From Spironucleus salmonicida (Eukaryota), in contig NC_090599.1 in assembly GCF_000497125.1 (NCBI RefSeq), positions 558,001-622,000 of the forward strand: a DNA stretch of 64,000 nt. The letters run 5' to 3'. Shown here piece after piece: positions 21,898-63,216 of this stretch. The notes under the pieces are model-generated. The model was given only the letters and a program-made list of their open reading frames with translations. It had not been told where the DNA came from and did not search any database. A program made the position numbers and the translations under genes. Position 1 is the first letter of the stretch. Each line of letters begins with the position of its first letter.

Positions 21898-22273
21898 TTT
21901 ACTAATATATTAAATTAATTATATAATAATGGTAGTAATTGTTGGGGGACTGATTACACAAATGTGATATTTCTAGTATAAAAATCAGTTTTATTAATAA
22001 CGGTAAGTTGAGTATATATTTGAGTATCATGGAATCTATATTTTACGGTGATAATATACATATATATAGTAATAATATAAAAAATTGAAATTTTAAATGT
22101 TTGTTTTACTAAGCTTTATAATGATAAATATATCATATTTTTATTGAACATTACGTTGACTTCTTCTAGTACATTTATTTATTTTAAATATAAAACATAT
22201 TAAAAAACAAAAACAATGTACTTATGACATTATGGTGTATATAAAAATTAAAATTAAATTGTTGTCTTGTAAA

Positions 22274-23851
22274 ATGTTAATTTTGCTGTCTGATGTAACT
22301 ACGTGTTTCGATGACACAGCAAAACTAATTGGAATCGTTTAATAGTTTTAATACAATATGAAAGTAGTAAATGCAAAACCATCCCCGCTTAGATGTTAGG
22401 CTTTTAATAATACTGAGTCAACCGCTACTCTTAGTTATATGGATAGTACGGCCAAGACAATAGAAACCAAATTCATATATTTTTCTGATAGACCAATTGA
22501 AATTTAATTCAAAAGTGTAGATGAAACTGTCTTTAAGACAATGGCGGCTTTATCTATTATTTCTTATTCAGTGAAGCTTTCAAACGAATTAGATGTCTCT
22601 GGAACCTTTTCATTGATTTAAAATACTTTAGTAAATACTTCAAATTGTTGGAATACCATGACTCTAAATTATTCTAGAAGTGGTGATTCCTCATACTTAA
22701 ATCTATCTGCGGATCCTAATGATTGTATTATCACAGACCCAACCGCGAAATTTTAGTATTAGGTCGATAGTGTTTGGTATAACGTAGATATAGCACCTTT
22801 AGCATCAGCACCTTCAGATTATGAAGGATACAAAACACCTTTCGAACATATTAAAACTAAGTTTTATAGAGTTAATTTGACAGACTCAGCAGATGATGTT
22901 AAGAAGTAAATAGAAGATTTTTACGTTTAATTTTCTAAAAATAGAGCAATAAAAATGCGACTATTTTTAGAATTTACATAAACTGGCTCTAAATTAAAAC
23001 AATAAATATTTAGCCCTATAAGCAATATAGTTACAGTTAGTAATGAATGTTAAACTGCAATTAGTGGATTTGGAACAATTTCATCAGAATTTTTTTAAGT
23101 AGTAGGTGACTTAACTAAGTTAAGTACTTGTATAAATAATATAGCTACGGTACAATCTTCTATGGTGCTAGGAAATATATAATTATATGATGATAGATTA
23201 TTCAGTGTTATGGTTGGAATGGCTACGCTTATGTTCAAATTTTCATCTCCCTAGGATGCAATGCTCGAGTTACCATCTTCCCCAAACGCGTTAGTTATCA
23301 TGAGCTTCCTCGATGCTGATGGAAAAGTGGTTCGCGAAGAAGCAAAAGAGTACACTATCAGCCTCTCGTGCTTCTACAAGATTAGCGCAATAATTTCATA
23401 CGCCGAGACCTGTATTGTATTCTTCCCGGTGCAGACAGATAGGTGCGTATAACTTTACTCAAAAGCTGCGAAGACTCGGTTCCAGCAGATTTTGCAGGCC
23501 GATGCCGCCACAGCAAGCCGCCTGATCTACCAGGTATACGAATTCACGATGCCGTTCGAGTCAGTCCCCTACTTCCGGACCTGCCTGCGCGAAAACACTA
23601 CCTCTATGAACACCACGTTTACGTTCTTCCAAGGCTCCTACAGCGCACGGCAGCACGCCTTCGTGGACACCCTGAAGACCTCGTTCCAGCCGCTCGTCAT
23701 GTTCAACAACGACTACGACTTCCAGTTCCAGTACGTGGTGGGAATCGACCAGACCAGCCTGATAGCGATGCCCGTCAGCATCATCCTGGTGGTGCTGTTC
23801 ATCACCGTGGGCACCGTGTTCGCGGTACTGATAGTCAGGCTCAGCCAGTGA
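22274..23851 (+). CDS. Type I membrane/surface protein family A, copy 1 (525 aa)
   Basis: Hydrophobic N-terminus, Cys-spaced ectodomain, C-terminal TM (IILVVLFITVGTVFAVLIV); joins track ORFs 23261 and 23492. Confidence 0.85.
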
Positions 23852-24975
23852 GACTGTGATGTGACTTTTTTGTCTACTGGGAACTCCCGCCCGCGCTAAC
23901 CCAAAACCCTCACTTCTCGCCCCAGAGCCTCCTGCCCCAGCCGTACACCTGCGCCCGCACCATGTCGTCGCTGATCTGCTCCTTCACCCGCTGGTGCTCG
24001 CCCACGATGCCCTGGACTAGCGCGATGAGCTCCGCCTTCACCTCGCCGGTGAGCATCTCGCCCTTCTGGTAGCGCGCCTTGATCGAGTCCAGCCTCGCCT
24101 GGTCGTCCATGAACACCTCCAGGTACTGGACGCTGACGTCGATGGCGAGGTTGGCGCCGAACTCGCGCTGCTCCTCCACGGTGGCCCTGCCGCCGCTGAA
24201 CGCGAACTTGTTGATCTTCTTCTTGATCTGGGCTGCCGAGTCGTCCATGTATACCGCGCTCTGGGGATCTGATGCGGACATCTTGCTGTTCACGCCCTGG
24301 AGCGCCGGGATGAACGAGTTGTAGATCGTGGCCGGCTTCTGCAGGCCGAGCCTCGGGGCGATGTCCCGGGCCACGCGCCAGTAGGGCTCCTGCTCGTAGC
24401 CGCAGGGGATGAGGCAGAAGGGGGTGAGCTCGATGGGCGTCTGGCCCTGCTGGCTGAGCCTCCTCTGCTCGAACTGCTTCTTGGTCTCTCCCTCCTTCTG
24501 GGCGAGCGGGGCGATGGCCACGTCCGTCCTGGCGGCCCGCCAGGCCTTGCAGTACGCCTCCGTGAAGATGTGAGGGAAGGCCTGCGAGAAGGCGGGCTGC
24601 ATCTGCTTCGCGGGGAACGAGACGTAGCCCACGTTCTGGACGTCCGAGAACCCGAAGGCCCCGCGCAGCTGCGAGAGCGTGATGGCGCGCTCGAATACGC
24701 AGGAGAACTTGTATACGCTGCCGATGTACGCCGTGTTCAGGTAGATGAAAGTGCGCTCCTGGTCGAACTTGCAGGCCAGGATGTCCCTGATGTTGGACAG
24801 CGCGAACTCGTGGATCTGCTCGAACGAGAGCGTGGGGTCCCGCAGCAGCTTCTCGTCGTCCGTGATCTGGATGACCAGCGGGCAGCCGAACGCCTGCTGC
24901 AGGTACCGGCAGAAGTAGAACGGAATCATGTGGCCCAGGTGCAGGGCCGCAGAGGATGGGCCACGTCCGGTATAT
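23189..24975. repeat. Left arm of 1787-bp near-perfect inverted repeat (partner 41588-43374)
   Basis: Reverse-complement match by eye, with paired coordinates summing to 66563; four mismatches found. Confidence 0.95.
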
Positions 24976-25196
24976 AGATATACTGGACGACCCTGTTCAA
25001 AAGCATCCAAAAATAAATCAAAATCACGATGGGAAAAATAAAGAAAACGTGATAATAATGGATGCGGTTTTGAATTCGTAAGTTTATAAAATCTATCAAT
25101 TATCTCTTAGTTCAATTCGGAAACTCCAAAATTTTCGATAATTTAATTTTTAGATAATGAAGCAGTGGCTGCTGTCGCATCGATCTCTTTTGACAT
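23910..25196 (-). CDS. WARS: Tryptophanyl-tRNA synthetase (eukaryotic/archaeal type), intact copy, 428 aa
   Basis: YLYTGRGPSS, HLGH, QITDDEK, KMSAS and KINKFAFSGG motifs; ATG 25196 preceded by CCACTCC. Confidence 0.97.
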
Positions 25197-32763: not shown

Positions 32764-33666
32764 TCATACAAATAACGTGCTGCTAACATCGTAGTCATTT
32801 TAAATAATAGTTATGCTATCCGTGTTTCTTTTGGCAACCATAGGCCTCAGCTCGCCGAACCCACTGGAGATGGGCTTGTTGGAGGCGTCCTTGCGGCTGT
32901 TGGACTTGCAGCACACGATGGGCATCACGACAGCCATGACGAGCAGCAGGCAGATGCAGGCCAGCATGATGATCTGCGTGGTGGTGAACTTGATCTTCTG
33001 CTCGCCCCCGGTGAAGTTCGTCTCGATCTTGAGCGTGTCGCCGGATACGTAGGTCTCCTCGTACTGGAAGCGGTCGTTGCCGGTCGTGAAGATCTGGATG
33101 CTCTTCGCCTGCTTGAGGCCGTTCAGCTTGTCGAAGCAGGTAGTGGGGTTCACCTGCGCGAAGGACTCGGGGCAGCGGAGGGTGATGGTGCTGGTGCCGG
33201 CGACTGTGCTTGGGGCCGCGTGGTAGAAGTTGGATCCGAGCGTGATGAGGGAGCCCTTGGTGACGTCGATGCCGGCGGGGAAGGTGATCACGATGGAGTT
33301 GTCACTTTCTGAGGCGTAGTTGATCTTGACGCCGATCTCGGTCGCGCAGTAGGCGAACAGCAGCTGCTTTTTCGTAATAGTTATTTCAGTTGGAGCAGTA
33401 CCTGGTTGAGTAGTTATAGATTATTTTATATCCTTTTAAAAGTGTGCTGAAATTTTTTTTAAGTCGGTTTCACCAACACTCGCATCAAATTGAAATTTGT
33501 TTTCTCCTTACTTAAAGTCAAATTTATTTCCATCAACAGTTATTGAAAATTCTGATATACCTGTAATAGCAGAATCTATTGTAACAAATTGAATTGATAT
33601 AGTGGTGTTAGTAACCGTAACAAATCCCAGTGTTTTGTCCGCTGCAAAAAGAGCTAGGAACATCAT
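32764..33666 (-). CDS. Type I membrane protein family B, copy 1 (300 aa)
   Basis: Signal-like N-terminus, TM IIMLACICLLLVMAVVMPIVCC, cytosolic RKDASNKPISSGFG. Confidence 0.85.
32854..33390. repeat. 537-bp identical direct repeat (partner 40509-41045) inside family B copies 1 and 2
   Basis: No mismatches seen at offset 7655; flanks diverge. Confidence 0.92.
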
Positions 33667-40418: not shown

Positions 40419-41321
40419 TCAGACAAAAAGCATCGATTCCTGCTTATAAATGGTCAATTCGACATTGCTCTTGCTGGCACAGCTCATATCACTTTTGGGC
40501 CTAAGGCTGCCGAACCCACTGGAGATGGGCTTGTTGGAGGCGTCCTTGCGGCTGTTGGACTTGCAGCACACGATGGGCATCACGACAGCCATGACGAGCA
40601 GCAGGCAGATGCAGGCCAGCATGATGATCTGCGTGGTGGTGAACTTGATCTTCTGCTCGCCCCCGGTGAAGTTCGTCTCGATCTTGAGCGTGTCGCCGGA
40701 TACGTAGGTCTCCTCGTACTGGAAGCGGTCGTTGCCGGTCGTGAAGATCTGGATGCTCTTCGCCTGCTTGAGGCCGTTCAGCTTGTCGAAGCAGGTAGTG
40801 GGGTTCACCTGCGCGAAGGACTCGGGGCAGCGGAGGGTGATGGTGCTGGTGCCGGCGACTGTGCTTGGGGCCGCGTGGTAGAAGTTGGATCCGAGCGTGA
40901 TGAGGGAGCCCTTGGTGACGTCGATGCCGGCGGGGAAGGTGATCACGATGGAGTTGTCACTTTCTGAGGCGTAGTTGATCTTGACGCCGATCTCGGTCGC
41001 GCAGTAGGCGAACAGCAGCTGCTTTTTCGTAATAGTTATTTCAGTCGAAGCATCACCTGGTTGAGTAGTTATACTTAAGGTTTGTTCATTTGCAAAATGA
41101 TCTGAGATTGTTTTCAAAGGTACAGTACTCACACTCGCATCAAATTAAAATTTGTTTTCTCCTTACTTAAAATCAAATTTATTTCCTGCAATAGTTATAG
41201 AAAAATCTGCTATACCTGTAATGCTAGCAGCTATTGTAACAATTTGAATAGAAACCGTAGTGTTTGTTACTGTAGAGAACCCTATAGTGTTTGCATCGAC
41301 TAGTAAAGTAAGTAGCAGCAT
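40419..41321 (-). CDS. Type I membrane protein family B, copy 2 (300 aa)
   Basis: Same length as copy 1; identical core, divergent N- and C-termini. Confidence 0.85.
40509..41045. repeat. 537-bp direct repeat, second copy
   Basis: Matches 32854-33390. Confidence 0.92.
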
Positions 41322-41469: not shown

Positions 41470-42653
41470 TGAATTATCTCAAATCTAAGTGTCTACGATA
41501 AATTTTAGGTGTCGTATTATCACTACTTATTATGCAGAATGCCGCTCAACTTTACATTCTAAGTATTACTGAATACACTATTTGATCATATACCGGACGT
41601 GGCCCGTCCTCTGCGGCCCTGCACCTGGGCCACATGATTCCGTTCTACTTCTGCCGGTACCTGCAGCAGGCGTTCGGCTGCCCGCTGGTCATCCAGATCA
41701 CGGACGACGAGAAGCTGCTGCGGGACCCCACGCTCTCGTTCGAGCAGATCCACGAGTTCGCGCTGTCCAACATCAGGGACATCCTGGCCTGCAAGTTCGA
41801 CCAGGAGCGCACTTTCATCTACCTGAACACGGCGTACATCGGCAGCGTATACAAGTTCTCCTGCGTCTTCGAGCGCGCCATCACGCTCTCGCAGCTGCGC
41901 GGGGCCTTCGGGTTCTCGGACGTCCAGAACGTGGGCTACGTCTCGTTCCCCGCGAAGCAGATGTAGCCCGCCTTCTCGCAGGCCTTCCCTCACATCTTCA
42001 CGGAGGCGTACTGCAAGGCCTGGCGGGCCGCCAGGACGGACGTGGCCATCGCCCCGCTCGCCCAGAAGGAGGGAGAGACCAAGAAGCAGTTCGAGCAGAG
42101 GAGGCTCAGCCAGCAGGGCCAGACGCCCATCGAGCTCACCCCCTTCTGCCTCATCCCCTGCGGCTACGAGCAGGAGCCCTACTGGCGCGTGGCCCGGGAC
42201 ATCGCCCCGAGGCTCGGCCTGCAGAAGCCGGCCACGATCTACAACTCGTTCATCCCGGCGCTCCAGGGCGTGAACAGCAAGATGTCCGCGTCAGATCCCC
42301 AGAGCGCGGTATACATGGACGACTCGGCAGCCCAGATCAAGAAGAAGATCAACAAGTTCGCGTTCAGCGGCGGCAGGGCCACCGTGGAGGAGCAGCGCGA
42401 GTTCGGCGCCAACCTCGCCATCGACGTCAGCGTCCAGTACCTGGAGGTGTTCATGGACGACCAGGCGAGGCTGGACTCGATCAAGGCGCGCTACCAGAAG
42501 GGCGAGATGCTCACCGGCGAGGTGAAGGCGGAGCTCATCGCGCTAGTCCAGGGCATCGTGGGCGAGCACCAGCGGGTGAAGGAGCAGATCAGCGACGACA
42601 TGGTGCGGGCGCAGGTGTACGGCTGGGGCAGGAGGCTCTGGGGCGAGAAGTGA
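41470..42653 (+). pseudogene. WARS: Second TrpRS copy: body near-identical to the intact gene, 5' end decayed
   Basis: In-frame TGA at 41583-41585 just before YTGRGPSS; the first downstream ATG (41634) lies after HLGH. 41472-41512 still weakly resembles the intact gene's 5' coding sequence. Confidence 0.8.
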
Positions 42654-50089: not shown

Positions 50090-51055
50090 TCATTTCATCT
50101 CGTCAAACATGCTTTCCCCTTTCCACTACGCATCGCACGCGTGCAGCGCAGCCCCGAGCGCGTTCCCATTGTCTTTAACGACCCAAAATTTAATATCTCT
50201 AAATTTACTGAAAAACGCGATTTTCGCTTCTTCCTGACTGTCCAAGCTGCCCCAGAAGCTCCCAACGCAAATCACGTCCGAAAACGTCCCCTGCGCCATC
50301 AAAACCGCCACCATTTCAGCCAAATACTCGAATTCCTCGCAGTAGACTTTGCGCACCAAATCGCTCTAATTCGCCTTCATTTCGACGTTGAAACTGGCCA
50401 CTTTTGCCTTGAAGCCAGCGCCGTAAAACAGCTCCAGAATTCCGCTGTCCTGGTACGTCTATTTTTCGAACCCGAAAAACGCAGAAAAATCGCTCCACAG
50501 CGACCCGAAATCGCCTGTCCGGAGGCCGTCCTGCACAGCGCAGGCCTCTTCGACGGCCCTGCGCACCGCCGAAAATCCGCAGCCGCGCTCCTTCAGGAAG
50601 TGCCCCAGGCCGCCGACCTGCGCCTTGAAAAATCCCGCAGAGCCCGTCCCAGCGATTACGACAGCTGGCGTCCTGCCGAACTGCCGCTGGAACATCTGAA
50701 TCGGGCCTGACGTGTCGTGCGTCTGAACGAAATTTGGGTAGTTGCTGAAGTGCTCTTTAACGAAGTTAGATGGGGTGTTGAAGCCAGCGACTGTGAGCCC
50801 TAGAGAGGTCGCGTTAGGGATTTTGGCGGCTAGGAGTGAAGTCTGGATAATTTCGGAGAAATCCTGGCAGACCTGGTTTATGGAGGTTAGGTAGTGGTTA
50901 GACGGAATATTGTAAAGTTTCGAGTAGATGACCTTTGAGGCCTTAAAATCAGCTATTACGATTCTTGTTTTCGTACCTCCGCCTTCTATGCCGATTGTGA
51001 GAGAAGATATGGTTTAGTTCGCTGGAACGACATTCGTGGATGCTTAGCAACCCAT
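50090..51055 (-). CDS. N-acetylglucosamine kinase-like (BadF/BadG/BcrA/BcrD ATPase), 321 aa
   Basis: IGIEGGGTKT, LGLTVAG, THD, VVIAGTGS, VGGLGHFLKERGCG, VGSFW, ALGAA. Confidence 0.88.
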
Positions 51056-52110
51056 ATTTATGGAAAGATACTAGTTATATATATCTTAAATTATGCGAAT
51101 GTGGGTAGAGTTAAATCTACCTTATAACTGATGCATTTATATTATTATATAATTGGTATGTTTGTATTTTTTATTTACTAAAAATTGGTAATAAATTATT
51201 ATATATAAATAAATATTAAATGAAATAGTGAAATTAAATAATTTAAGGATAACTATGACTATGGCCATATAATTTTAATATTCCAAAAGTAACATATACT
51301 AGATCGTAATGAAAAAAGCAATTACTATGCATAATTTTATTAATATTTTTTAAATTATAAAAACTGGACCATTTGATTCAAATAGCATATTACAAATGAA
51401 AAACTTTTGTTTTAATATAAACAGTATATATAATAAGAAATAGTGAGCTTTGTAAAACTTGCATCATCAATCACATCAGCAAACGATCATCTATTTAATC
51501 TACACAATTTTAATATTCCACTTAATTTATAGGCTTATTAATGATGCGAGGAGAATGTTAGCAGTTAAAAATTTCCTTTGAATAATTTTTGACGGGAATG
51601 CCTTTAAATGATAGGTCAAAATTCATTCTAAGGAATGACTTTAATTACGAATAGTTTATATTCATATTTAAAGTCATATTTATATTTGATCTATTCTAAA
51701 TTAATTTCCAAAAATATTAAGTATAATATTTATTAACGTAATATAATTGTATTTTAACATTGTATTTGTTTATATATTTATATGATTGTATAATATAATG
51801 ATTCACTTTTAGATAACCAATTTCGTGATTTAAACCGTTCATCTGGATACTACGAATCTAACGCTCTAACCTACTGGTATATATCTGAATACCCTGTATC
51901 TTGATAAAAATTATGATTTACAGAAACTATAAAATACATCTACCTATAATCAAAATAATATCTATAATCAGACTATTGCATTTTTAATAAATTAAAACTA
52001 ATATATGAAAAATAACTAGTAAGAAGTATGTGTTCGATTTAAAAAGAAGTATTATTTATATTAATATACATTATTTTTATATATAATAATTTACCACTCC
52101 ACTACGATTA

Positions 52111-53313
52111 ATGTCTGATCCAGAGCAGCACAATTTTTGGCCATCCTAACCAGTAGGACGTGACGCTTCTTCGACATAAGCAAAGATTATTTCTCCTGTG
52201 GATCGTAGCAAAATTTAACAAACCCCAATCACAGTACCAGAATTCTTAGAATTTTAACCTCTAACATTGCCAGAAAATCTTGACGAACTATTTACATTTT
52301 TAGCGTCTCATTATGTAGGTGATGCTGCGGGAACATCTAGATTTGCTTATTCGCGAGATTTTTTGACTTGGTGGATTGGATCTCAGTCTTCAAACCTTGC
52401 AATTGCGCTTCGTGCCAAATCTGACTATGAAAATATCAAAACCGGAGATATTTGTGGGTTCATTAGTGGTCTACCAATGGATTATTAATACAAGGAGATT
52501 AAAACAGTCTCTCAGTCTGTTGATTTTTTGTGTGTGCATTAGACACTCAGATCTATGAATTTGGCACCATTACTCATCTAGGAGATCACACGTAGGAGTT
52601 ATAAGAATAATGTTTAAACTGCTATTTTTACGGCTGCCTTCACCGCTAAGCAGAAGAATCCTGCAATTCCCCCAGTTTTAACTAGTACCTATTTCCATAG
52701 ATTGTTGAACCCTGTAAAGTTAATGCAATGTAATTTTTGTCAGAAACCATATAATATGGATCTAAAAAAATTTGAATTCGTCTACAGACTTCCAGCTATC
52801 AAGTAAACCTTGAGAAAAATGAGTTAGAAAGATATCTCTGATTGCTACAAGATCTACACTAATTATTAAGATAAATACGTCATTAAGCAATTGTTTAGTA
52901 AAAAATTATTTGAAAAGATATTTAAATCAAAAGATAATGTCGTTTAATCGTTTGTTTATGATGTCAAAGGCCAGGTAGCTGCATTTATCAGCTACTACAT
53001 TGTCGACAGCTAAATGTTAAGCCCAGAGGTCAACAAAATGCATAAATTCATAAGAAATGGGTACATTTTGTAATATGGTATAAGTGATGAAGTCGAGAAT
53101 AATATTGATCTTAGCTCTTTGGTCCTCTGCTTAATGCACGAAATGTACAAGGCAAAAATTGATGTATGCACATGTTTAGATATTTGCAAAAACATGGAGT
53201 TTATCGCTAAATTAAGATTTGATCCTGGAGATGGTAAGTTATGCTATCACGCTTTCAATATGGACTGGGGCAAAGAATTACAAAAACACGAACTTGGCGT
53301 CGTTCTTGTTTGA
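52111..53313 (+). CDS. NMT: Glycylpeptide N-myristoyltransferase (400 aa)
   Basis: HNFWPSQPV, HYV, FAYS, VDFLCVH...LAPLLIQEITRR, YFHRLLNP, GDGKL, C-terminal LGVVLV. Confidence 0.95.
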
Positions 53314-54108: not shown

Positions 54109-55455
54109 ATGGCAATTCCAGCTGATAACTTGTTCTTGGCAATTTCAAATTATAAAGAGATAGCTGAATTGCATACATAATTGAAATAATCTTTTATAAA
54201 TGAGTAATATGCGACATCTAAAATAGTTATATCTTAAATTTAGGTATTAATATCTCCAAACTCAGAATTATTTAAGTAGCTTTAATAATGCCTAGTAAAT
54301 TTACCATAATCTTCAAGAGTTAGATAAAAATCTTTATCTAAGCCTAAAAATACTACCAAGCCACATAGATTTGTCGATAATTAGGCTATATCTCCATAAT
54401 CCTCATTTTACAACTCTCCACCATCTCTTACTTAACCACTTTAGCCATATTAAAACAATGATAACAGTTATTATTTCAATACTCTTAAAACTATGTAAAT
54501 TCCATATTAGTAATCTAAAAAGCCTGATATTTCTGATATTAATATTGAATAATTACGATAGGAGGCAATTTATAAGATAACTGACTAAAAGTAATAATTA
54601 CGAGAAAATGTTTATTAATATTATGCGTATCCTTAAAGTAACACACAGTAAAGTCTTTACTATAATACTAATGATAATGAACTGGAAGATGAAAATGATG
54701 GGTTTATTTAGCCACCATTTATTGATTTAGGCAGAAATCAATCATCAAATTAGGTTTAGAACACACATAATGCTGATACTTTAAAAACTAATCACAAACA
54801 AGATAAAACTGTTAGATTTTCTATCGAAAAAGAAGACCTACATTTTAATGAAATTCCAACATTACCTAAAATTAATTTATTAAAAGTTGATGTTGATTAA
54901 AGTTAAAGGTATGATTTTGAATAGTTGATAGATAATTTATCCGCTGAAATACCCCCAGAAGTATTTGGTTAAAAATTTGACAATGATATAGGTTAAATTT
55001 TTCAATAAAATAATAAGACCAGTTCGCCAATCTCTAGTTTCAACTCATTTTAGTTAAATCCTATTGTTTATGCAGCCGATGAGTATACTGCAATTCCATT
55101 CACGTTTTTAGATTCTAGTATCATACTGACAACAATTAAGCAATTAAATCTATGGGATAATGTTTAAACTGTTTACTAAAAGTTAGTATAAACATCAGAA
55201 TTTGCTAAAGAGATTCATTCAATCTTAATAGAACATGATATAGATATTGCCATAAACTTTGACTACTCACGTGATGAGGTAAGAGGACTATTGAATTTAG
55301 GAAAGATTTATTTCGGTAGAGCTAGTGTAGCTTTGCAACGTGCTGTACGATAACGTTCCCCACGACTTGGCAGTGATGTAAGATTTGGAGAGGCACTAGT
55401 TGATGCAGGCGATCTAGTAGGCTTATGTGCAATGCTTCGTGCGATGGGTGGCTGA
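54109..55455 (+). CDS. Hypothetical protein (448 aa)
   Basis: Code-6 ORF MAIPADNLFLAISNYKEIAELH...LCAMLRAMGG-TGA. Confidence 0.7.
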
Positions 55456-55628
55456 CCCGCTTCAAAGGTCTCCAGACGTTCCTCAATGGAAATTTTGGCG
55501 TCAGCTATGGTGCTCGGTGTGACTTCGAGGTATTCGCCAATGGAACCCTCGTCTTCTCCAAAGCCTAGGAGGGCGCCTATCCCAGTTCCCCCGCGGTGCT
55601 TGGGGCGATAGAGGCGCTCGTGGCATGA
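55425..55628 (+). pseudogene. Diverged SelW-derived copy lacking the CxxU N-terminus (open 67-codon frame overlapping the upstream gene's end)
   Basis: RFKGLQTFLNGNFGVSYGARCDFEVFANGTLVFSKAQEGAYPSSPAVLGAIEALVA versus the SelW at 62989-63216; in-frame 12-nt deletion; similarity begins at about 55456. Confidence 0.8.
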
Positions 55629-55634
55629 AAATGT

Positions 55635-55688
55635 AAACTGAAGCTGTGACGTGGGCAGGATAAGAGCCGTCCGTACTGATTGAGTTTT
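55635..55688 (+). promoter_or_regulatory. SECIS-derived element (altered 3' arm) copied with the SelW fragment
   Basis: ctgTGACgtgggcaggataagagccgtccgtacTGATtgag versus parent ctgTGATgtgggcaggataagcgcgagcccctgctaacTGAG. Confidence 0.55.
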
Positions 55689-55923
55689 TTCAATCGGCTA
55701 ATATTTTTTCATTATCTATTTTTATCCCCTTATCTAAATTTTCCACTAGAAATAATTTTAACGACCAAATCTCATCCATCCAAAATCTATTTTAACAATT
55801 TCTTTGACTCTAAAATTAAGATCAACCACCATTTAATCAATACCCTTAATAGTAGAATATTTACATTTTTATAAAATATATTATTTTATATATTTATTCA
55901 TATTTTTTATCCACTCCAAATTA

Positions 55924-57177
55924 ATGTACCTACACCAGCAAAAGTCTATTACAAAATTTCTGTCATCGTCAAACTTCAAAACACTCGTGACGAACCAAAC
56001 TGGCCTCTGTAGATCCCTTTTACCCCAGAATTTGATGCGCAAAATGTCGTTTTGCGCTACCTCCAAATTGGACTCCCAGGCCACAGATTTGGCTAATGTG
56101 TCGGAGCTCGTTTTCGTGATTTTGGAAGCAGAACAAGGCGAGGCGATCCAGCTCATAAACCAGATCCGCAAATACCTTGCGATCCAAATCGTCCAAATCC
56201 CGTCCGTTTTCCCACACCTGCCAGTGCCGGAGACGTAGAAAACGCCGCCAGCCAACTTTAGGGCCATTTCGCTTCCGTTAATCGAATTTTTCACTCCAAA
56301 TTTTACAATTTCTACGCTAGAATCGCTTAACAATTCGATTTTCCACTTCACAAATTCTACAGGTTACGGAACCGTAAAATCACACGTCAGCCAGGCCTTT
56401 CCAACCTGCATGTCGGGCCCAAGTCTGCACTACATTTCGCGTGATTTGACGCTTTTCAACAAATTCCGCACCTTCACTTCCTACGGTGCTCTGGTTTTTG
56501 AGTATTTTGAAAAAATTTCCAAGGAAGAAGCGGAAAATCAAATTGAAATTGAATTCACCATTTTACTCACTGATGCCATTTTTTGTGAAAATTTGGCTCT
56601 GGATTTCGCTGAATTTGCGCAAATTCTTCCAAAAATTGTCAATTCTCACAAAATCAAGCAAACGGAAGCCAAAAGGACGCAGAATTTGCACTTAATTTAG
56701 GAAGTGGAAAACGAAAAATCCTCTATCGATTTACACGTTCGAATGAGCAAAAATCTCATGACAATAATTTAAGAATTTGGGTTATATCAGTTAAAAGAAG
56801 TGGAAAATGAAATTCTAAGTGGATTTTTGAGTGTCGAGAACACTGAAAATAAACTGAAATAGTTAAAAATCAACGATAAACTGCGAGAGAAGTTTTGCAG
56901 GCTATACGGGCTCGTCCAGGGAAGCAATTTGCTCGGGAGTGGCTTCAAAGTGCAGAAGGTTATGTTTAATGACGGGCTTTTAGATAGATTGAACAAAAAA
57001 GCGCTATGTTTGAAAACCATCGTGGGCTAGAGTGTTAAGGGGTTTGAATTTTAGACATTGAGTCAAGGGAATGGAAAATTGAATTTCGCTTACATTGATG
57101 GAAGTTGCTGTCTTGGCGAACTAATCGAACTGGGCGGAAGTATTGGCTGTTAGGCCATAACACAGTGGTGGGAGTGA
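55924..57177 (+). CDS. Divergent Sec1/Munc18 (SM) family protein (417 aa)
   Basis: ISRDLTLFNKFRTFTSYGALVFE resembles DRxxDxxTPLxxxxTYxxLxxE; IDLHVRMSKNL...LKEVENEILSG; AYIDGSCCLGE; CCACTCC upstream. Confidence 0.65.
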
Positions 57178-58800: not shown

Positions 58801-59697
58801 TCAGATAATATTGTCGTGAACATTTTCTGAAGTGCGTATTTCAATACTAATTTTATCTGCATAGTAAAATGTTATATTATTTTCATATCTTTATGGTCCA
58901 AATCCACTAGCTATAGGCCTATTTGACGCATCTTTACGACCAGTTGTCTTTAAACATACGACAGGTAATACTAATGCTATTATTAAGAGACAACAAATGC
59001 AAACTAGCATTACTATCTATTGAGCAGTATATTTGTTGTTTTAACTTTCACCAGTAATATGTTCAATTATTTTTAGATTTGTTCCTGTAAAGTAAGTTTT
59101 TTCAAATTAAAATATATTAATACCTGTATCAAATATTTTTACGTCAGATACGTCTCTCAGCCCGCTAATTTTATCAAAACATGTAGATGGATTTTATTAT
59201 ACAAAAGAATCTGGGCAGCTCAATTTTATCTTATTGCGTACAGCTCCTTTTAAATGAAAATTAGATCCAAAACTTAAAAATTAACCTTATGATAAATCTG
59301 TTCCCTTTGGAAATTCAACTATTATTGAATTATTTTTTTCAGATTCATAGATCAAACTAATTTTTATCTCAGCAGATGAAGTTGCATATATCAATTTTTT
59401 CACATATATTCTTATTTTTTCTTATTTGTAGTCTACAGTGATTATCTATTCAGTACTATTTTAAAAATATTCAGAAATTTACCGTAGATCAGTACTCCTA
59501 ATAGGCGCTTGAAACTATAAATTATTTTATTGAGATTGAATAAAGTTATACTCTTCTCCATTAATATTTACTGTGAAGTCTGAAATATTATTTATATTCT
59601 TTCGCATTAACACGATCTAAATGCTGACTTTATCATCATATACTGTTAAAAATCCTATAATATCATCGCTTATTGCCATTGCCATTATGAAGAGCAT
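58801..59697 (-). CDS. Type I membrane protein family B, copy 3 (298 aa), AT-rich and divergent
   Basis: CPDSFVQQNPSTCFDKISGL, QIVMLVCICCLL and RKDASNRPIASGFG match copies 1 and 2. Confidence 0.85.
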
Positions 59698-60527: not shown

Positions 60528-60600
60528 TGAGGCCAACAGGAGTCGAACCCATGACCGTTCGATCTGGAGTCGAATGCTCTGCCAACTGAGCTATGGCCCC
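60528..60600 (-). tRNA. tRNA-Trp (anticodon CCA)
   Basis: GGGGCCATAGCTCAGTTGGCAGAGCATTCGACTCCAGATCGAACGGTCATGGGTTCGACTCCTGTTGGCCTCA folds as a cloverleaf: acceptor GGGGCCA/TGGCCTC, anticodon stem TTCGA/TCGAA, loop CT-CCA-GA. Confidence 0.95.
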
Positions 60601-60613
60601 GTATTATTTTTAT

Positions 60614-61453
60614 TCACCCTTTAAGCTGGAACAACAAAAATATCAAAAAGCTGCCAAACATGCTCAAAATCAGCAAAACGACCGAATCCGCAGCGCTCGC
60701 CGCCTCCAGCTGCCGCCCGAGCAGCCCCTCGAGCACGCGATTTTACTCGCTCAGCTGCACGATCTGCAGCTGGTGCAGGTTGAGCCTGGGCACGCCCAGG
60801 GCCTGGAGCCTGCGCGCCATTTCGCTCAGGCTCACCTTTTCCTCCTCCTGGTTCAGGCTCAGGAGGATCAAAACGTTGCAAATTTCGTCGATTTCGACGA
60901 TTTCGCGGCTCAAAATTTCGTAAAAATGAAGTTTCAGCTCCGCGACTTCCACGAAGCTGTTCGCGAGGTCGAACTCCGCGGCCTCGAAATCGGCGACGAT
61001 TTTACGAAACGCGAAAAGGACGTCCAGAGAGACCTCAGGAGATTGAATTTGGGGGAATTTGAGCGTTTCGGAAATGCCAATATTAGGAGTGGAAAATGGA
61101 ATTGAATTTGAAATTTGCGAATGTGATATAAGGGGTTTCTGCGTCGTAGAAGGCGAGGAGAGCTGTTTCTGCGTCGCTGGCGTCAGGTTGACCGTCGGGT
61201 TCGTCGGGGGCGACGCCTGCGAAGAGGATGACTGCATTGCCGAGAAGAGGCGCAGTTCGACGTCTGGGCGCGACTCGTTGTTCACCGGTGAGTTGATGTG
61301 CGTTAGCGGTCGCTCGGAAAGCTGGATTGTTACTGTGTCCGGGTTGTAATTGAAAGCTGACATGTCAAATTCCTGGATTATCGGCTGGTCGTCGTCCGAT
61401 ATCGCTAATGAGCTGTCTAGATGAATTGCGAGGCTAGAAATCTGTGATGACAT
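60614..61453 (-). CDS. Hypothetical protein with C-terminal TM helix (279 aa)
   Basis: Code-6 extension of track ORF 60743-61453; ends VVLLILSMFGSFLIFLLFQLKG. Confidence 0.7.
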
Positions 61454-62497: not shown

Positions 62498-62925
62498 TAT
62501 ATAATTATTCACTAGTTATAGTTATATAATATAATATTAATATTAAACGATAAAATAATACATTACATATACTGATAAAGATACTTATGAAACATACTAA
62601 AAGTTTCATAAAGAAGTGTAAAATAGAGTTTTAATTAAAAATAACAATCTAGATTTGCCGGACCTACTGTATTATAACAAGATAAATTAGTTTGATCTGA
62701 TTTTTATAAGAAATTTTCAATAACAATGTATAATTTTGTGTTTATAGGTAAAAGCAACCTAGCTAATTAAGTTAGTTTTAATAAAGGAATTTGATTCTTA
62801 GGTGTAAGGTTTAATTTTGAAACTATAAAGTACTATTAACTACAAAATTGTTGATATCACGAACAATATAAAAGAAGGATAGAAATGCCAAATAAAGGAA
62901 ATATAACAGATAATTGAAGAAATTA

Positions 62926-62982
62926 ACAAAACTCAGTTAGCAGGGGCTCGCGCTTATCCTGCCCACATCACAGCTTCAGTTT
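62926..62982 (-). promoter_or_regulatory. SECIS element (eukaryotic, form 2-like) in the SelW 3' UTR
   Basis: G-UGAU core, helix GUGGGCAGG/CCUGCUAAC, unpaired AUAA, apical GC-GCGA-GC ministem, closing UGAG. Confidence 0.8.
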
Positions 62983-62988
62983 ACATTT

Positions 62989-63216
62989 TCATGCCCCAAG
63001 CGCCTCTATAGCCGCCAGTACCGCGGGGGGACTGGGATAGGAGCCCTCCTTTGCTTTGGAGAAGACGAGGGTTCCGTTGGCGAAGACCTCGAAGTCGCCC
63101 AGAGCACCATACTCGAAGACAGCCTCGACACCAAGCTTTCCTTTGAGGAACGCTTGGAGACCTTTGAAGCGGGGCATGGAGCCTCAGGACTAACACATCA
63201 CGACCTTGATTTCCAT
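62989..63216 (-). CDS. SELENOW: Selenoprotein W / Rdx family selenoprotein (75 aa, CxxU)
   Basis: MEIKVVMCQSUGSMPRF...GDFEVFANGTLVFSKAKEGSYPSP; in-frame TGA at 63184-63186 in the CxxU position; Rdx motif GxFEVxxxGxLVFSK; downstream SECIS. Confidence 0.92.

Follow-up and report, generated by a model that had tools for sequence, protein, structure and literature searches.

In Spironucleus salmonicida, passages of the published literature report that UGA serves as stop codon, selenocysteine (Sec) codon and core of the polyadenylation signal together. What, in such an organism, becomes of a gene whose stop codon is followed directly by part of a selenoprotein gene? The question is raised by a 64,000-nucleotide stretch of contig NC_090599.1 (positions 558,001 to 622,000 of the forward strand; hereafter the window, with positions counted from its first letter), whose long intron-free genes are readable only with TAA and TAG as Gln and TGA as the sole stop. 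An orphan open reading frame (ORF) of 448 codons at 54109-55455(+), here called the host gene, ends at TGA 55453-55455, and at this same codon begins a 242-nt piece resembling a selenoprotein W (SelW) gene (55453-55694(+)), which runs through the SelW stop into sequence descended from a candidate Sec insertion sequence (SECIS). An original prediction, made from the letters of the sequence, proposed that the captured SECIS might recode the host stop as Sec, or that the SelW frame might have become a protein with a new Cys-containing start, and named plain decay as a further option. The last of these is the one favored by the asymmetry of divergence between the piece and its parent gene, by lost helix pairs and by the lack of a promoter-like region. 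We conclude that the element is most probably a decaying relic, left by an inverted and partial duplication of a nearby gene and possibly lying within a lengthened 3′ untranslated region (UTR) of the host gene.

A partial, inverted duplicate of a SelW gene

The parent lies 7.3 kb away on the opposite strand, where the window carries a complete SelW/Rdx selenoprotein gene of 75 codons (62989-63216(-)). Reading from the ATG at 63216 through Cys (63195-63193) and the Sec TGA (63186-63184) to the stop (62991-62989), it encodes MEIKVVMCQSUGSMPRFKG...EALGA, with the arrangement C8-Q-S-U11. The protein matched the Pfam family Rdx (PF10262) with an E-value of 1.7e-10, and its relatives in the PDB, 2ljk (E 3.6e-6) and 2p0g (E 0.0087), are both solved Rdx proteins. 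An AlphaFold2 model with a predicted local distance difference test (pLDDT) score of 82.9 displays the succession beta1(3-8)-alpha1(15-28)-beta2(32-37)-beta3(42-46)-beta4(49-53)-alpha2(63-74). A TATA-like element and a C-rich stretch are found upstream of the gene.

Alignment of 55453-55694(+) with 63176-62922(-) by blastn revealed 82.0% identity over 255 columns (E 4e-69), and megablast returned 83.0% over 253 columns for the same pair. The copy comprises codons 14-75, the stop codon and ~66 nt of 3′UTR, and the source segment in the parent extends from 8 nt past the Sec codon to ~11 nt past the 3′ core of the SECIS. Identity amounts to 148/170 positions in the coding part, with one 12-nt in-frame gap, to 35/37 from the stop to the apical loop, and to 21/29 in the 3′ arm and tail, bearing out the claim that similarity continues through the SelW stop into a SECIS-like 3′UTR. 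Beyond these limits the resemblance to the parent is no better than that of shuffled sequence, with 327 of 1000 shuffles aligning equally well 5′ of 55453 and 209 of 1000 doing so past ~55694. The homology therefore starts at the TGA of the host gene, and the blastn limits and the shuffles agree with the original prediction on this point.

The first aligned bases are the host TGA itself (copy cTGAcccgc, parent aTGCcccgc), and detectable homology starts at its T. The description of a capture exactly at the UGA stop thus holds only within the 2-nt overlap TG, which limits the resolution of the junction; alternative junctions are offered by a GGCT microhomology or by the flanking repeat GGCTGA/GGCTAA. 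A longer homology reaching the copy's ATG at 55425 was considered and rejected. Both sequences share ATGTG, and TCC-TGA faces TCG-TGC in a manner resembling a Sec-to-Cys change, but alignments anchored toward this ATG over 30, 45 and 60 nt were matched or beaten by 483, 329 and 123 of 1000 shuffles, respectively. Comparing possible pre-insertion sequences helps to assign the shared codon. Excision just past the TGA would leave the stop adjoining AT- and T-rich sequence, as is usual in the window; were the TGA taken out along with the insert, the host frame would run on without a stop. By this comparison, the simplest reading takes the TGA as the stop that the host gene already had and the TG in common with the parent as junction microhomology.

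The host ORF looks like a real gene in its own right. Scored by codon usage, it reaches 0.211 per codon in its own frame versus -0.154 and -0.504 out of frame (0.09-0.26 for trusted genes of the window), and the score stays positive in each 150-nt window until ~55300. The last 60 codons are GC-rich at codon positions 1 and 2 (0.56-0.70 and 0.42-0.56), with a third-position GC content of 0.22-0.24. Because the third position is AT-rich throughout this GC-rich end, the C-terminus belongs to the host gene and lies outside the insert. The region 5′ of the host ATG is TATA-like and AT-rich (AT 0.80), as for other genes, and the locus matching the host in published annotation, SS50377_13567, has differential-expression values (PMC6397501). 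The host protein matched no Pfam family, and a word-index search for homologues returned the query alone among 3800 candidates. A full HMMER scan yielded one apparent homologue (P0005, E 4.6e-7), which was discarded as spurious; it is an internally repetitive ORF in which one 50-residue stretch matched four times.

As to how the piece arrived, we infer that it was inserted from the other strand directly 3′ of the stop of this unrelated orphan gene, most likely by DNA-level repair or template switching at 2-4 nt of microhomology. The inserted piece would have been devoid from the outset of a promoter, the first beta strand and the CxxU redox centre. It would then have drifted without a function, its SelW frame changing at an approximately neutral amino-acid rate and its SECIS helix decaying uncompensated. 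Transcription of the fragment would probably be purely passive, as a lengthened host 3′UTR, because the insertion would have moved the host's U-rich downstream sequence 240 nt away.

The window holds other local duplications. An inverted duplication of 2.7 kb with 92-93% identity relates 22272-24975(+) to 44297-41588(-); a second copy of the tryptophanyl-tRNA synthetase gene (41634-42650, 339 codons) is missing the first ~89 codons of the copy at 23913-25196 (428 codons). A direct duplication of 0.78 kb with 93% identity (32843-33619 and 40498-41274) repeats an ORF of ~300 codons, whose predicted products end in a Cys-rich tail and carry a C-terminal membrane span; with a more distant third member at 58804-59697(-), this family of three showed no Pfam match. 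Together with the 7.3-kb distance, the other partial duplications favor a local DNA-level duplication or templated repair. An RNA-derived fragment was also entertained, as the parent segment ends 8 and ~11 nt past UGA triplets, the reported distance of poly(A) tails. It was rejected on the lack of an A-tail and the proximity of copy and parent: no A-run is present at the 3′ end of the copy, where the sequence past 55694 reads CGGCTAATATTTTTTC. The flanking repeat, GGCTGA at 55450-55455 and GGCTAA at 55696-55701, matches at 5/6 positions, for which the probability by chance is ~0.1 (calculated by hand) and thus not significant.

The SelW frame of the copy

As claimed, the SelW frame of the copy is open from ATG 55425, affording a 67-codon ORF (MCNASCDGWLTRFKG...) at 55425-55628(+). 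This ORF matched Rdx with an E-value of 2.1e-5 and 25.1 bits, above the cut-off of 22.6, across profile positions 11-72 of 74. Conceivably it is a real small gene, whose product would be an Rdx derivative of 67 residues, free of Sec and starting with a new C-x3-C segment, made from a transcript of its own or from that of the host. In addition to the Rdx match and the open frame, an indel that stays in frame, a pairwise ratio of nonsynonymous to synonymous divergence (dN/dS) of 0.49, and the published entry for the probable counterpart of this ORF, fx080, which is named selenoprotein W and changes significantly in expression, would all be consistent with such a gene.

The content of the ORF argues against it. 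Homology starts 5 codons past U11 of the parent, and the N-terminus, MCNASCDGWL, is host coding sequence read in another frame. The ORF contains no CxxU or CxxC motif, its MCNASC providing C-x3-C, and the SelW frame is free of TGA from 55402 to the stop at 55626 and thus of an in-frame Sec codon. In comparison with the parent fold, residues 1-13, which include the whole of beta1, and residues 31-34 are missing; the latter, EAVF, are lost from beta2, and the complete Rdx fold is not present.

Divergence from the parent is strongly asymmetric. Copy and parent differ at 14 of 58 aligned residues, and we polarized these differences with two relatives from other records (P0003 and P0004), which share six states differing from both parent and copy. 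Twelve replacements fall on the copy lineage and 2 on that of the parent (two-sided binomial P 0.013, by hand), and 10 of the 12 alter residues on which the other three sequences agree, among them the G of GDFEV. Using the Nei–Gojobori method (NG86) under genetic code table 6 on copy versus parent alone, we obtained 10.2 synonymous and 15.8 nonsynonymous differences, with dS of 0.27, dN of 0.13 and hence the ratio of 0.49, a comparison with little power at 58 codons. A hand estimate that divides dS evenly and applies the polarized replacements yields an omega of ~0.9 for the copy and ~0.1 for the parent, such that the pairwise ratio appears to fit a neutral copy beside a constrained parent. 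The open frame is itself uninformative, since it remained TGA-free in 88% of trials with 26 random substitutions; where TGA alone terminates translation, open stretches such as this one and the host-frame continuation are to be expected.

The surroundings of the ORF are likewise unlike those of a gene. At -60..-21, the AT fraction reaches just 0.57 upstream of the copy's ATG, versus 0.72-0.97 at 16/16 gene starts examined. In passages of PMC3916229, S. salmonicida genes are described as preceded by an AT peak at -60..-20 that is TATA-like, along with a C-rich motif and an A run, and TATA-like motifs are reported for 80.7% of them; none of these features was found at the copy's ATG, which lies inside the host coding sequence. 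No gene caller represented in a collection of 5.8 billion proteins had called the ORF. Single-sequence AlphaFold2 prediction gave a pLDDT of 51.4, a value not comparable with the alignment-based run for the parent and not used as evidence. Overall, a functional small gene at this position seems unlikely, and the proposed exaptation as a new Cys-start Rdx protein finds no support in an ORF so truncated, so altered at invariant residues and so close to neutrality.

The SECIS remnant and the host-frame extension

To judge what the copy has inherited, the 3′UTR of the parent must be considered. Directly 3′ of this genuine Sec gene, we predict a candidate SECIS at 62920-62985(-) from its fold, a ladder of base pairs and a pattern scan. 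Its parts follow in the order helix I, GUGAU (62971-62967) opposite UGAG (62935-62932), helix II with 8/9 pairs in register, AUAA 12 nt past the core, and a GC/GC mini-stem, which is type-2-like. The core is GUGA rather than AUGA, and GUGAU and UGAG provide the letters required for the sheared G.A/A.G quartet. The minimum-energy fold of the parent 3′UTR (71-78 nt) takes a SECIS-like shape. In a crude pattern scan of the window against shuffled windows, scored by helix II pairs out of 9, 5 sites had at least 8/9 pairs versus a shuffle mean of 1.65, and the parent element was among them. Fold-stability z-scores (copy -0.85, parent -0.53) single out neither element. The 3′ UGAG of the parent leads into U-rich sequence that could double as the polyadenylation signal.

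At the gathering threshold a tRNA was the sole Rfam match, and at E-values up to 10 no SECIS family was returned for copy or parent, just weak C/D-box snoRNA-type and unrelated matches; the Rfam SECIS models seem not to cover this lineage. According to a passage of a 2010 survey, ERPIN found no canonical SECIS in Spironucleus cDNAs (PMC2874811), and our literature search found no paper that describes a SECIS in this lineage. A metagenome scan with the SelW alignment gave 161 pattern matches, of which 2 loci were confirmed; as both are unrelated, GC-rich and bacterial, they supplied no related 3′UTRs for covariation.

Aligned to the parent and examined by the same pair ladders and pattern scan, the remnant in the copy occupies 55647-55684(+). 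The core letters that had been noticed, UGAC and UGAU, are indeed present, along with AUAA and UGAG. The 5′ core UGAC lies at 55647-55650 (GUGAC, 55646-55650), followed by the 5′ arm (55651-55659), the AUAA loop (55660-55663), the 3′ arm (55668-55676), a new UGAU (55677-55680) and the UGAG homologous to that of the parent (55681-55684). The letters of the quartet, (A/G)UGA on the 5′ side and GA on the 3′ side, are matched as letters only. The AUAA is identical to that of the parent and places its AA 12 nt past the A of UGA, within the 10-13 nt used as a criterion.

Pairing has fared less well than these letters. The helix proposed between GUGGGCAGG and CCGUCCGUAC does pair partly and in register, but with just 6/9 standard pairs and three interspersed mismatches, whether UGAG or the new UGAU four bases upstream is taken as the 3′ core, and this score is at chance level in the pattern scan (31 window sites at 6/9 versus a shuffle mean of 24.3). 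Position by position against the parent, two central pairs no longer form, one having gone from G-C to G.G and the other from C-G to C.A; G.U now stands beside the quartet, and the mini-stem has disappeared. In the 5′ arm there is a single substitution, from U to C within the quartet, and it makes up for none of these losses. The best local hairpin of the copy reaches -6.0 kcal/mol, out of register with both cores, compared with -9.9 kcal/mol for the parent. The minimum-energy fold of the copy (-15.5 kcal/mol) contains a 9-bp hairpin (CUGAUUGAG/UUCAAUCGG; 55676-55697(+)), which is built of the insert end and flanking DNA across the 3′ junction and covers both candidate 3′ cores. Constrained SECIS-form folds gave -8.8 and -10.6 kcal/mol, rough values from which the forced closing pair is absent in the printed structures, and our assessment draws on the explicit pair ladders instead. 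Judged by sequence, the element of the copy is recognizable as a SECIS by descent, not by retained structure.

Several features nonetheless make Sec recoding of the host stop worth weighing. UGA is the only stop codon, passages of the published work describe Sec machinery in S. salmonicida, and the host UGA, in a context resembling that of the parent Sec UGA, sits ~190 nt upstream of an element that retains the UGA/GA core letters, a correctly spaced AUAA and, with the new UGAU core, three adjacent pairs. Recoding would add a 61-residue tail, and the host frame is in fact open for 61 codons (55456-55641(+)) to TGA 55639-55641, in accordance with the ~60 codons claimed. This continuation is the +1 frame of SelW, and the equivalent frame in the parent likewise runs uninterrupted to that stop; its openness in the copy is therefore inherited. 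Substitutions between copy and parent are distributed 4/13/9 over host-frame codon positions 1/2/3 (re-indexed by hand), which would be the opposite of what a selected, translated extension should show, and the coding scores of the extension are negative (-0.09 and -0.46). A 3′UTR of the default length described in passages on S. salmonicida cDNAs would, moreover, leave the element outside the mRNA. With the pair loss uncompensated and both 3′ cores in a competing hairpin, recoding by the captured SECIS is very improbable, and neither exaptation reading is supported. A combined scenario, in which the host poly(A) site is displaced, the UGAU form of the SECIS is partly active, and a fraction of ribosomes insert Sec and add the 61-residue tail, would represent a selenoprotein born by SECIS capture in an organism with UGA as its sole stop; we hold this, too, to be highly unlikely.

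Transcription of the fragment and comparison with known systems

Whether the host mRNA includes the fragment depends on how its stop codon is read by the polyadenylation machinery. Passages of PMC1805757 and PMC3916229 place the poly(A) tail 9-14 nt past TGA in 122/134 cDNAs and propose the stop codon as the core of the polyadenylation signal, preferably within AGTGA, followed by a T and with U-rich sequence downstream. With 3′UTRs of this length, the host mRNA would by default end near 55465-55470. The host stop is, however, atypical. Its context is ggcTGAc and the next 20 nt are 40% AT, whereas among 19 other window genes G occurs at -1 in 12, T at +1 in 11 and C at +1 in none, and 17/19 have at least 55% AT downstream of the stop. 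The parent Sec UGA must escape polyadenylation for the parent to be expressed, and the host stop context resembles it. The host stop (ggcTGAccc) and the parent Sec UGA (tccTGAggc) share a GC-rich downstream context unlike that of the usual window stops, an observation hinting that downstream composition helps to separate UGAs used for termination plus polyadenylation from other UGAs.

Published expression data bear on the same question through gene order. The recognizable genes of this region are a BadF-type ATPase (50093-51388(-)), an N-myristoyltransferase (52111-53313(+)), the host ORF, the SelW-like piece, a Sec1-family gene (55924-57177(+)), 3-4 hypothetical membrane or soluble ORFs and, last, the complete SelW gene. 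This order agrees row for row with an S. salmonicida expression table (PMC6397501; main-text Table 4 and supplementary file 3, rows 2775-2784), which runs SS50377_13565, 13566, 13567, EST46486.1 (fx080 'Selenoprotein W'), 13568 ... 13572, EST46492.1 (fx081 'Selenoprotein W'), 13573. By gene order, the host ORF matches SS50377_13567, a 'hypothetical protein'. By protein accession order and gene order alone, the SelW-frame ORF of the copy is probably fx080, and the parent matches fx081. Elsewhere between host and parent, a tRNA gene at 60528-60600(-) (63.3 bits) starts 14 nt past the stop of the ORF 60617-61453, approximately at its expected poly(A) site.

If fx080 is the copy, its published expression values mean that the fragment is transcribed. 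In the OXY comparison of PMC6397501, the log2 fold changes of fx080 and host are both negative (-1.4 and -0.66), whereas those of both flanking genes are positive (+1.53 and +1.32). Given this shared direction and the atypical stop context, we think it the likelier case that transcription continues into the SelW fragment, which may accordingly lie in an extended host 3′UTR. The same observations would suit a fragment that forms the host 3′ end outright, by readthrough transcription and polyadenylation after the SelW-derived UGA and its U-rich stretch, with no recoding, as a neutral or mildly useful 3′UTR or polyadenylation module. The short 3′UTRs of the cDNAs oppose this idea, which also overlaps the decaying-duplicate explanation, where passive inclusion is already assumed; as a separate account we find it improbable.

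Some observations weigh against a decaying duplicate. The ORF of the copy still scores above the Rdx cut-off, and its frame is still open, with its sole indel in frame. The dN/dS of 0.49 is below 95% of neutral simulations with 26 random substitutions (fraction at or below the observed value, 0.046), such that some weak constraint on the copy is conceivable; the constraint on the parent alone, however, would give a ratio this low. With the new UGAU as 3′ core, a SECIS-like form can be drawn in which three pairs adjoin the quartet and the AUAA is correctly spaced, and a residual activity of this form is likewise conceivable from its sequence. Conservation from the stop to the apical loop (35/37) exceeds that of the coding part (148/170), although not significantly (by hand). 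The OXY change of fx080, identified with the copy by gene order, is significant (PMC6397501 Table 4). Finally, a junction right at a stop codon is a priori unlikely, at ~1-3% by our own estimate for a random site in a spacer of ~230 nt.

The entire reported selenoproteome of S. salmonicida consists of three selenoprotein W paralogs, fx080, fx081 and SS50377_17641. The copy descends from the SelW gene of the window, and alpha1, beta3, beta4 and alpha2 of the Rdx fold are still recognizable in it. Unlike Rdx/SelW selenoproteins, it is missing a Sec codon, CxxU and beta1, has a deletion in beta2, evolves approximately neutrally and is preceded by no promoter-like region. On this evidence, the name 'Selenoprotein W' for the annotated copy would not be justified by its sequence, and it should not be counted as a selenoprotein; two published paralogs rather than three would stay candidates, the third, SS50377_17641, lying outside the window. 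SS50377_13572, which adjoins the parent, is listed in published tables as an OrthoMCL paralog of 17642, the neighbor of 17641, and it thus appears that another, larger duplicate of the parent locus exists at a different place in the genome. The 3′UTR at that SS50377_17642/17641 duplicate would offer a natural test of the candidate SECIS.

Compared with eukaryotic SECIS elements, defined by a kink-turn quartet, helix II and an unpaired AA, the copy inherits the 5′ UGA, the 3′ GA and the AUAA. It departs from them in its 6/9 helix II, its lost mini-stem and a 3′ core that is duplicated and sequestered in a hairpin, and neither its element nor that of the parent matches an Rfam SECIS family. The comparison of copy and parent does point to a concrete candidate in the parent 3′UTR, marked by its GUGA core, AUAA loop and mini-stem. 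The copy resembles a processed pseudogene in its 5′ truncation and in a 3′ end ~11 nt past a UGA with U-rich sequence downstream, at the reported poly(A) distance. Unlike a processed pseudogene, it has no A-run and no significant flanking repeat, and the 7.3-kb distance argues against dispersal through RNA.

The closest likeness is to fragments of local segmental duplications, or unprocessed partial pseudogenes, which are similarly partial, near the parent, inverted, approximately neutral and accompanied by other partial duplicates. A decaying gene fragment of this kind is ordinary biology. Unlike the usual duplicated fragment, this one landed at a stop codon proposed to double as a polyadenylation signal, and it may for that reason have changed the 3′ end of its host. 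The locus therefore amounts to a natural experiment in which new sequence has taken the place of what once followed a stop codon, and it bears on the share of the polyadenylation signal that resides 3′ of UGA.

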